The notes beneath the pieces are model-generated. The model worked only from the letters and a program-made list of their open reading frames with translations, searched no databases and was not told the DNA's origin. From the sequence record PQ511149.1: a DNA stretch of 64,000 nucleotides. One strand, 5' to 3'. The position numbers were made by a program, and so were the translations under genes. Below, piece after piece: positions 45,839-46,860 of the stretch; positions within the stretch are counted from its first letter, which is position 1, and the number at the start of each line of letters is the position of its first letter. The DNA comes from Escherichia phage NHEP11.

Positions 45839-46471
45839 TCACAGTACGTTAGTTACAAGGGTAATGATTTCTTTGGACACATTAGGGAAGTCAATGTAAG
45901 TATATTTACCACCGATCTTAATCTTAACATCATTTTCAAGAGAAGTAAACAGCTTTGATTCAGTTTCTGACATGTTGTATGCAAAGATTCTAAGAGAACC
46001 ATTTCGACGAATTTCGATCTGACGAATACCTAGAACTCGTTTTGCAAATCGAACTTCCAAGTTACTACGGTTTTCACCAATTTCTTTAACTTCAACTTTA
46101 TCTTTAATATTTTCAAAAACAAAGTTTGCTAGTTCGTGCATTTCAGGAGTAACTCCACGTGCTTTTCTAGTGTTACGTTTCTGAAGAAGTTCTGGAGCAT
46201 TTTCTTGAGCAAAGAGGTCTGCAGCTTTTTGGATAATATCCATTGCTTCACCTGTTGCTATAAGTCCATCACCGGATTTTTCGACTAAACCTTTCTTAAT
46301 CAATACACCAATGTTAGAGTTAACAACCGATGCATTGTATTCCGCTTCCAGAGCTTCACGGACATTGGCAGCAGTGGTGAAGTTGTTCTTAATGATATAA
46401 ACCATTATTGCAGCAGTTTTTTCATTCAGAGCGTTTTCAGAAGCTTTGATGATGTAAGTAACTTTAGACAT
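45839..46471 (-). CDS. motA: middle-transcription activator MotA
   Basis: 210 aa (T4 MotA 211 aa); two-domain activator; own early promoter upstream. Confidence 0.9.
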   Translation of the reverse strand: MSKVTYIIKASENALNEKTAAIMVYIIKNNFTTAANVREALEAEYNASVVNSNIGVLIKKGLVEKSGDGLIATGEAMDIIQKAADLFAQENAPELLQKRNTRKARGVTPEMHELANFVFENIKDKVEVKEIGENRSNLEVRFAKRVLGIRQIEIRRNGSLRIFAYNMSETESKLFTSLENDVKIKIGGKYTYIDFPNVSKEIITLVTNVL

Positions 46472-46530
46472 TTTATTTCTCCAATTTGGTTGTTTTGTTT
46501 TGATAGGTCTATACTATCATGTTTGAAGCA
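46463..46530 (-). repeat. direct repeat copy 1 (promoter -10, leader, RBS and start codon ATG-TCT-AAA of motA)
   Basis: 68 nt identical to approx 46784-46851. Confidence 0.8.
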
Positions 46531-46539
46531 AAAGTAAAC
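46511..46539 (-). promoter_or_regulatory. T4-type early promoter (-35 GTTTAC, -10 TAGTAT) with overlapping MotA-box-like TTTGCTTCA
   Basis: 17-nt spacer; upstream of motA. Confidence 0.6.
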
Positions 46540-46576
46540 TTTATTTTGGGCTCTTTTTCAAAAGCCCTGGTAAAAT

Positions 46577-46792
46577 TTACAAACTCATTTCTTTAATAAT
46601 GCTAATAAGTTTTGCCTTTTTAGAACGAAGCTTTTCTAAATGATGTCCATTTGAACCGCGAACCACTAAAGAATTGATTTCAACTTCTAAGAAATTTAAT
46701 TCTTCAACAAGTGCTTTACGTGGAGCATTCATACCAGGTTTAACTTTACCGAAACGAGTAGTTGTGTTTTGGGTTAATTTCATTTTAGACAT
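46577..46792 (-). CDS. hypothetical protein sharing the motA promoter-leader-start module
   Basis: 71-aa ORF beginning MSK like motA, preceded by the duplicated leader. Confidence 0.55.
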   Translation of the reverse strand: MSKMKLTQNTTTRFGKVKPGMNAPRKALVEELNFLEVEINSLVVRGSNGHHLEKLRSKKAKLISIIKEMSL

Positions 46793-46851
46793 TTTATTTC
46801 TCCAATTTGGTTGTTTTGTTTTGATAGGTCTATACTATCATGTTTGAAGCA
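46784..46851 (-). repeat. direct repeat copy 2 (promoter -10, leader, RBS and start codon of the 71-aa ORF)
   Basis: 68 nt identical to approx 46463-46530. Confidence 0.8.
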
Positions 46852-46860
46852 CATGTAAAC
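46832..46860 (-). promoter_or_regulatory. T4-type early promoter (-35 GTTTAC, -10 TAGTAT)
   Basis: 17-nt spacer; upstream of the 71-aa ORF. Confidence 0.6.

Follow-up and report, generated by a model that had tools for sequence, protein, structure and literature searches.

What does it mean that two neighbouring genes of a T-even phage begin with the same promoter, the same leader and the same first codons? We analysed this question in a 64,000-nt stretch of the genome of Escherichia phage NHEP11 (PQ511149.1), referred to below as the window. One of the two genes is motA, the activator of middle-mode transcription, and the other is a small open reading frame encoding a 71-aa protein (ORF71), which lies between motA and gene 52. 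A preliminary description of this DNA had proposed that ORF71 is co-regulated with motA, or that a recombination event captured the motA expression signals, and that homologous recombination can use the repeat for deletion or duplication.

The repeat upstream of motA and ORF71

The duplication of the promoter, leader and start codons is real. Base-by-base comparison revealed an exact direct repeat of 68 nt on the minus strand (46463-46530 = 46784-46851) with a period of 321 nt. One copy is located 5' of motA and the other 5' of ORF71. Repeat finding extended the ungapped similarity to 86 nt at 94% identity (Table 1). The 50-nt core of the repeat occurs exactly two times in the window, and no match to it was obtained in 100 dinucleotide-preserving shuffles. 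An assembly artefact was rejected because the same arrangement recurs in at least 75 independently assembled genomes.

Read on the coding (minus) strand, each copy consists of a stem-loop, an A-rich stretch, the -35 hexamer GTTTAC, 17 nt, TGn followed by the -10 element TAGTAT, a leader of about 39 nt, TTGGAGAAATAAA and ATG TCT AAA. The identical stretch begins with TGCTTCA and continues through the TG-extended -10 element and the leader to the third codon. GTTTAC had been described as following both copies. It is indeed present at both, but it does not trail them: it is the -35 hexamer and, on the coding strand, precedes the identical stretch by 3 nt.

Table 1. Positions of the genes, stem-loops and promoter elements at the motA-52 locus, numbered from the first nucleotide of the window and listed in the direction of transcription
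Feature	Position	Strand	Description or basis
Gene 52, topoisomerase II medium subunit	46978..48303	-	ORF; phrog_551, PF00521; annotation of relatives
SL52, upstream-cassette stem-loop	46872..46901	-	GGGAGC-UUCG-GCUCCC, then U-rich tract UUUUGUGCAUUUUU
Module copy 2, 5' of ORF71	46784..46869	-	Ungapped 86-nt repeat; begins with A-rich upstream stretch
Copy 2, -35 GTTTAC	46855-46860	-	
Copy 2, TGCTTCA	46845-46851	-	Inside the 17-nt spacer
Copy 2, TG-extended -10 TAGTAT	46832-46840	-	
Copy 2, GGAG Shine-Dalgarno	within 46790-46805	-	
Copy 2, ATG TCT AAA	46784-46792	-	
ORF71, 71 aa	46577..46792	-	ORF; conserved in relatives; phrog_6200 (PHROG of unknown function)
SL71, between ORF71 stop codon and motA promoter	46548..46567	-	GGGCUUUU-GAAA-AAGAGCCC
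Module copy 1, 5' of motA	46463..46548	-	Ungapped 86-nt repeat
Copy 1, -35 GTTTAC	46534-46539	-	
Copy 1, TGCTTCA	46524-46530	-	
Copy 1, TG-extended -10 TAGTAT	46511-46519	-	
Copy 1, GGAG Shine-Dalgarno	within 46469-46484	-	
Copy 1, ATG TCT AAA	46463-46471	-	
motA, activator of middle-mode transcription	45839..46471	-	ORF; PF09114 at 1e-39, PF09158, phrog_1345

Gene 52, ORF71 and motA are all encoded on the minus strand, and gene 52, the upstream neighbour, is transcribed towards the cassette. SL52 looks like an intrinsic terminator because its hairpin at 46886-46901, closed by a UUCG loop, is followed by a U-rich tract. The fold containing SL52 has an energy of -15.7 kcal/mol (z = -3.4). SL52 is annotated as a terminator in SA79RD and PhAPEC2, and JS98 contains at the same position a stem of other sequence with the identical UUCG loop. 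SL71 folds with -12.3 kcal/mol (z = -3.6). Because SL71 has no U-tract, it is probably an attenuator or a stabiliser, not a strong terminator, and would permit some read-through into motA. One pair of the SL71 stem is G-C in Mosigvirus, G.U in VR5 and A-U in JS98, and another pair alternates between U.G and C-G. The SL71 hairpin itself appears to be under selection, since the stem covaries between genera via a G.U intermediate.

[quoted passage not shown] Both copies of the module contain GTTTAC, TGn, a TAnnnT -10 element and an A-rich UP-like region. The module promoter can be written as GTTTAC(T/A)-N-TAGTAT with a TG extension, in which the spacer is 17 nt when counted from GTTTAC and 16 nt when counted from TTTACW. 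The minus strand of the window contains six instances of the pattern GTTTAC-N17-TAnnAT with extended TG and the plus strand none, against an expectation of 0.29. A long consensus, consisting of GTTTAC, TGn, TAnTATAGAC and GGAGAAnnAAAATG, is common to the early promoters of this phage. Over 75 nt, 73 positions are shared by the motA/ORF71 pair as compared to 31-41 by unrelated early promoters of the window. The likeness of the two copies therefore far exceeds the promoter consensus. We infer that both copies are active early promoters; co-regulation of motA and ORF71, as had been proposed, is plausible because both carry identical signals. A 42-codon ORF that has been called across the promoter is spurious.

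The leader, from the -10 element to the ATG, has no significant structure (-2 to -6.8 kcal/mol, z +0.26 to +0.95). Other early promoters of the phage have a hairpin that hides the Shine-Dalgarno sequence on read-through transcripts; such a hairpin is absent from the module, as judged from the same z values.

Presence, loss and age of ORF71

The alignments indicate that ORF71 is a real gene under purifying selection. All homologues are 71 aa long, the dN/dS ratio is 0.22-0.26, and 44-45 of the 71 positions are invariant. These values, together with homologues in both Mosigvirus and Dhakavirus, speak against the possibility, raised in the preliminary description, that the ORF lacks coding potential or conservation. 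ORF71 has no Pfam family. A word-indexed search of 5.8 billion proteins returned eight clusters, all 72-98% identical to ORF71, and no relatives outside Mosigvirus and Dhakavirus were found either in these 5.8 billion proteins or by an exhaustive profile search of 1.84 billion representatives. Three extra profile matches to long, repetitive proteins (RTX repeats, MCP and coiled coil) were dismissed as repeat or composition artefacts. The homologues are placed by these searches in the motA-52 slot only. The AlphaFold model of ORF71 (pLDDT 76) contains a disordered basic N-terminal third, followed by a generic helical hairpin, and had no match in the PDB at E <= 0.001. The N-terminus bears a conserved RFGKVKPGMN motif. 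ORF71 would be an immediate-early accessory gene, dispensable and probably host-directed.

The window belongs to Mosigvirus, the RB69-like T-even phages, and its motA-52 locus is 97-99% identical to those of Mosigvirus genomes. PHB12 and NHEP10 are the closest at the locus, where the window, PHB12 and NHEP10 are 99% identical. Relatives for comparison were drawn from GenBank phage records; a search of IMG/VR yielded no related loci other than those of JS98 and VR5. By tblastn, ORF71 was detected in 76 Mosigvirus and 17 Dhakavirus-like records. About 154 Mosigvirus records match the region at 95% or higher, and thus about half of the Mosigvirus records are without ORF71. In RB69, the interval that separates motA from gene 52 contains no ORF.

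Mosigviruses with two copies of the module have 504-507 nt between the gene 52 stop codon and the motA ATG, as compared to 185-187 nt in RB69, GADS24, S143_2, a20, SQ17, mar005P1 and O157tp3 (O157 typing phage 3). The difference between the one-copy and two-copy intervals is one repeat period (321 nt). When one period was deleted from the window in silico, the product aligned with SQ17 over 305 of 305 nt with four mismatches and no gaps, and the other one-copy genomes were collinear. These results bear out the predicted role of the repeat as a recombination substrate: the exact 321-nt deletion that removes ORF71 is present in many natural relatives.

In the shallow neighbour-joining trees obtained for motA and for the 3' end of gene 52, one-copy and two-copy genomes are intermixed. 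The one-copy phage mar005P1 and the two-copy phage APCEc01 are even assigned to one species, and in mar005P1 the distinctive ORF71-side promoter variant of APCEc01, TAGTATAAACC, is fused directly to motA. At least two types of junction exist: six one-copy genomes have kept the ORF-type leader, and RB69 has kept the motA-type leader. The intermixing could mean that a few deletion alleles have been spread by recombination between phages, not that many deletions arose independently.

The two copies differ in their leaders in most relatives. Type A (AACAAAACAACCAAATTGGAG) is found on ORF71 in every two-copy Mosigvirus examined. Type B (AACAAATACTAATTTGGAG), which differs from type A by a 2-nt indel and several substitutions, is found on motA in SA79RD, ST0, HX01, APCEc01, PhAPEC2 and RB69. 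Type A on motA was observed in the window, PHB12 and NHEP10, and in a targeted search it amounted to about 5 of 75 records. Because most two-copy relatives have the type B leader before motA, the comparison indicates that the perfect 68-nt identity is a derived minority state, generated by a recent conversion that put the ORF71-type leader before motA. Traces of the reverse direction are found in SA79RD and APCEc01, in which the -35-proximal TTT of the motA copy is present on the ORF copy. The third base of the -10 element in the two copies is G/G in the window, T/T in PHB12, G/T in NHEP10 and C/C in JS98.

The arrangement is older than this conversion. JS98 and VR5, which belong to Dhakavirus, contain the ORF in this slot between an early promoter and a stem-loop of its own, and their leaders are unrelated. 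They carry a 49-nt promoter repeat, the two copies of which lie in JS98 where those of the window do. Between the window and JS98, ORF71 shows a dN of 0.243 and a dS of 1.09, and motA a dN of 0.245 and a dS of 0.90. ORF71 has diverged about as much as motA and therefore predates the split of Mosigvirus and Dhakavirus. Given this equal divergence and the ORF in the slot of JS98 and VR5, the two-copy state is most likely ancestral, and the one-copy genomes would be deletions. The Dhakavirus ORF starts with ATG AAT AAG (MNK) behind its own leader, the Mosigvirus ORF starts with MSK, and motA starts with ATG TCT AAA in T4, JS98 and RB69. Based on these start codons, Mosigvirus ORF71 probably took its Shine-Dalgarno sequence and first three codons from motA, a direction assigned by parsimony from two genera only. 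The proposal that motA expression signals were captured is thus right as far as the Shine-Dalgarno sequence and start codons are concerned, which are probably derived from motA. It does not hold for the leader in the window, which moved the other way and replaced the usual motA leader by the ORF type, nor for an event in NHEP11, since the duplication is older than this phage.

Interpretation of the cassette pair

The PeSL (promoter-early stem-loop) of T-even phages is a stem-loop located just upstream of a TTTACW...N17...TAYWAT promoter, with a Shine-Dalgarno sequence and a start codon at its 3' end. PeSLs flank ORFans that differ between close relatives; the intervening gene can be excised or inserted as a mini-circle, and the mini-circle crossovers map between the -10 element and the ATG (PMC2839356, PMC4122927). 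At the motA locus, SL52 and SL71 lie upstream of the two -35 hexamers. The promoters are sigma-70-like, with a minor departure at the third base of the -10 element (TAGTAT in the window, TATTAT or TACTAT in relatives; the T-even PeSL consensus is TAYWAT). Both copies end in TTGGAGAAATAAAATG, and the ORF enclosed by the tandem copies comes and goes among relatives through an indel of one 321-nt period. We consider it likely, with considerable confidence, that two tandem PeSL-type cassettes bracket the accessory gene ORF71 just upstream of motA and that recombination between the copies deletes or re-inserts ORF71.

From these signals and from what is known of T4, host RNA polymerase is expected to start at both promoters immediately after infection. 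SL52 would terminate transcription arriving from gene 52 and thereby insulate the cassettes, and the leaky SL71 would pass some ORF71 transcripts into motA, so that in two-copy phages motA may be fed by two tandem promoters. Because the 5' UTR, the GGAG Shine-Dalgarno sequence and the first three codons are the same, motA and ORF71 are expected to be translated alike. As the comparison with relatives shows, gene conversion keeps the copies similar, and the repeat acts as a portable recombination site. A crossover anywhere in it deletes or re-inserts exactly one 321-nt period together with ORF71. Since the repeat spans the promoter through the third codon, any such crossover leaves motA with a complete, in-frame promoter, leader and ATG TCT AAA.

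The shared leader may also determine the fate of both mRNAs. In T4, motA is an early gene, and its mRNA is cut by the RegB endoribonuclease in the Shine-Dalgarno sequence (Uzan et al. 1990; PMC2988021, PMC3014915). The sites cut by RegB are GGAG motifs of early mRNAs, located in initiation regions that are unstructured and A-rich, and the Shine-Dalgarno sequence of regB itself is reported to be cleaved wherever tested in T4-related phages. Both copies of the module contain the GGAG Shine-Dalgarno sequence in an unstructured leader, as RegB targets do. A point against RegB cleavage is that GGAGAAATAAA agrees with the strong RegB site consensus GGAGRAYARAA at only five of the seven positions after GGAG. 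PHB12 encodes a RegB that is 76% identical to T4 RegB, and the Shine-Dalgarno context of the PHB12 regB gene, GGAGAAATCAAAATG, differs little from the corresponding sequence of the module, GGAGAAATAAAATG. In NHEP11, regB should lie outside the window by synteny with T4. Because T4 motA mRNA is cleaved, GGAG is unstructured in both leaders, PHB12 has RegB and the regB context is alike, motA and ORF71 mRNAs are probably both RegB targets. A RegB cut in GGAG would then inactivate both mRNAs, as it does T4 motA mRNA, and limit both proteins to a short early burst.

Could the likeness of the copies be explained otherwise? If both genes need exactly this promoter, leader and start, selection and not recombination would keep the copies alike. 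The long consensus of the early promoters agrees with such a constraint, as does the motA promoter and leader being fairly conserved even in Klebsiella phage Marfa. However, other early promoters of the window reach an identity of only about 50% across these 75 nt, and the identity of the copies is not required, since most two-copy relatives drive motA from the type B leader. Furthermore, the third base of the -10 element is common to both copies within a genome and yet varies among near-identical genomes (G/G, T/T and, in one of them, G/T). These findings make constraint as the sole cause highly improbable. Alternatively, an incoming ORF might have been captured beside motA recently, in NHEP11, by a duplication that copied the motA signals. 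The motA-derived Shine-Dalgarno sequence and first three codons of the Mosigvirus ORF, as compared to the MNK start and other leader in Dhakavirus, are what such an insertion would leave. This explanation is nevertheless very unlikely because the ORF occupies the same position in Dhakavirus with its own early promoter and stem-loop, because its divergence matches that of motA and places it before the genus split, and because in the window it was the motA copy that received the leader of the ORF copy, and not the reverse.

A further alternative assigns the repeat to MotA itself: the promoters would be dual early/middle or otherwise MotA-controlled, with MotA binding TGCTTCA in the spacer and activating or shutting off both of them. 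A canonical MotA box, (a/t)(a/t)(a/t)TGCTTtA, is located 12 +/- 1 bp upstream of the -10 element, with GCTT at -30 to -27, and replaces the -35 element. A box of this kind at -30 had been described for the motA copy only. This turned out to be incorrect, because TGCTTCA lies within the identical stretch and the core is hence found in both copies, where it ends 7 bp from the -10 element with GCTT at about -25 to -22. In sequence, the motif does fit the consensus: it reads (T/A)TGTGCTTCA, or TTTTGCTTCA upstream of motA and ATGTGCTTCA upstream of ORF71. In addition, the motA early promoters of Mosigvirus, Dhakavirus, Marfa, Merlin and CHI14 contain TGCTT(C/T)AAAC, or a version of it with a single mismatch, in their spacers. 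The spacing, on the other hand, is not that of a middle promoter. The box ends 7 bp from TAGTAT and a full GTTTAC -35 hexamer is present; therefore the module is not a canonical middle promoter. No TAnnnT was found 11-13 bp downstream of TGCTTCA, whereas the spacing of canonical MotA boxes on the same strand of the window peaks at 12 bp. The motif is also absent from the T4 and PM2 motA promoters, and its conservation elsewhere could be the mere shared ancestry of a slowly diverging promoter. We thus regard control of the two promoters by MotA as unlikely. The same doubt attaches to the more specific idea that TGCTT(C/T)A is a functional operator, half a helical turn from the activating position and kept in these five genera, at which MotA, alone or with AsiA-modified polymerase, shuts off the early promoters of motA and ORF71. 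If this improbable reading were true, the middle-mode activator would be under negative feedback, and the duplicated module would have brought ORF71 into the circuit.

Comparison with known systems

The tandem PeSL-type cassettes proposed here are best compared with T4 and with the published PeSLs. The early promoter of T4 motA also has a stem-loop, GTTTAC, a TG-extended -10 element, a GGAG Shine-Dalgarno sequence and ATG TCT AAA. T4 differs in having a single copy of the stem-loop and promoter, no ORF71 homologue and a spacer without TGCTTCA, so the comparison with the T4 motA-52 interval suggested in the preliminary description sets the two-copy arrangement apart from T4. The T4 motA.1 gene is a different small ORF, which encodes a hydrophobic membrane protein and overlaps the end of gene 52. 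In RB69, 57 early promoters were predicted, 13 of them upstream of novel ORFs, and the authors concluded that the novel ORFs are expressed with the early genes (Nolan et al. 2006, PMC1524935). That study established the general pattern; a near-identical duplicated module and its recombination products are not described in it.

Similar to the PeSLs of Arbiol et al. (2010) and Comeau et al. (2014), the cassettes at motA combine a stem-loop with a strong sigma-70-like early promoter, which in our case is predicted from the sequence, and the two copies enclose a small ORFan that only some close relatives possess. Unlike the published PeSLs, the pair adjoins the conserved regulator gene motA, and it is found in Mosigvirus and Dhakavirus, which were not analysed in those papers; RB69 is not mentioned in the 2010 paper (PMC2839356). 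The exact identity of 68 nt is also far longer than the shared PeSL motif and extends three codons into both genes.

The arrangement is a clear, if expected, example of the known shuffling mechanism of T4-type phages and would not surprise a T4 specialist. Its specific features are the place beside motA, the length of the identity into both genes, and the population-level record of deletions and conversions. Because the two-copy state, at least two one-copy junctions and the conversion intermediates (G/G, G/T and T/T) are all present in public genomes, the process can be traced at the population level. For annotation, the cassette pair explains why the motA-52 interval has two sizes in Mosigvirus, and it flags the 42-codon ORF call as spurious. 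The locus offers a clean natural example of how T4-type phages can acquire or shed small early genes while an essential gene next to them stays intact.

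Spacers of the early promoters

In Mosigvirus, Dhakavirus and Marfa, alignment places the motif TGCTT(C/T)AAAC within the spacer of motA's early promoter. Merlin and CHI14 have it in this spacer at one mismatch, and the aligned motA spacers of T4 and PM2 lack it.

At some early promoters, the spacer between the -35 and -10 elements holds one arm of a strong hairpin; the sites concerned are promoters 59143 and 14803 in the window and the promoter of regB, a phage nuclease gene, in the relative PHB12. At promoter 59143 and at PHB12 regB, the second arm is predicted to cover the Shine-Dalgarno sequence, and the hairpin predicted at promoter 14803 lies upstream of it. 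In the first two cases, the ribosome-binding site would thus be masked on transcripts reading through from upstream, and it would be free on transcripts begun at the promoter itself. No spacer hairpin of this kind was found in the motA and ORF71 modules.

Coordinates of the features (window positions unless a locus is named)
Feature	Position	Strand	Details
TGCTT(C/T)AAAC spacer motif	46524-46530 and 46845-46851		alignment of motA early promoters (A4)
Spacer hairpin, early promoter 59143	59060-59144	-	predicted -24.5 kcal/mol, z = -4.2
Spacer hairpin, regB of PHB12	L020 (PHB12 regB locus) 6025-6090	-	predicted -21.6 kcal/mol, z = -4.1
Hairpin, early promoter 14803	14706-14804	-	predicted -18.8 kcal/mol, z = -2.2
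Second tandem early-promoter module pair	14706-15250	-	-35 hexamers start at 15249 and 14803
ORFs downstream of second pair	14808-15179 and 14368-14733	-	each ~120 aa
42-aa "hypothetical protein"	46780-46908; L008 (NHEP10 locus) 1681-1809	-	NHEP10 annotation
26-aa hydrophobic ORF LSALALGFLGAIAALVIWLYWLDKHD	46901-46981	-	TTG start, overlapping gene 52 stop (TTGA)

A second tandem module pair

Two further early-promoter modules are alike at 59 of 75 positions, and the ORFs behind them begin with MNTINLN and MNYINFE. The pair may be another promoter-early stem-loop (PeSL) pair or a set of tandem paralogues.

Between ORF71 and gene 52

The 42-aa protein annotated in NHEP10 extends over three elements of the ORF71 module, its terminator, promoter and leader, and is almost certainly an erroneous gene prediction. 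In the window and in most relatives, the terminator hairpin that follows gene 52 (46886-46901) has the loop sequence TTCG. In RB69, PhAPEC2 and S143_2 (loci L003, L012 and L014) the loop is the reverse complement, CGAA, with the stem unaltered; from these sequences the difference looks like a hairpin-loop inversion polymorphism.

The small hydrophobic ORF at the end of gene 52 is unannotated on its strand in every Mosigvirus record inspected. A GGAGG lies shortly before its TTG start. An identical ORF occurs in RB69. At the same place JS98 has a hydrophobic ORF of 34 aa with an ATGA overlap with gene 52, and the counterpart position in T4 is occupied by motA.1, of 49 aa.
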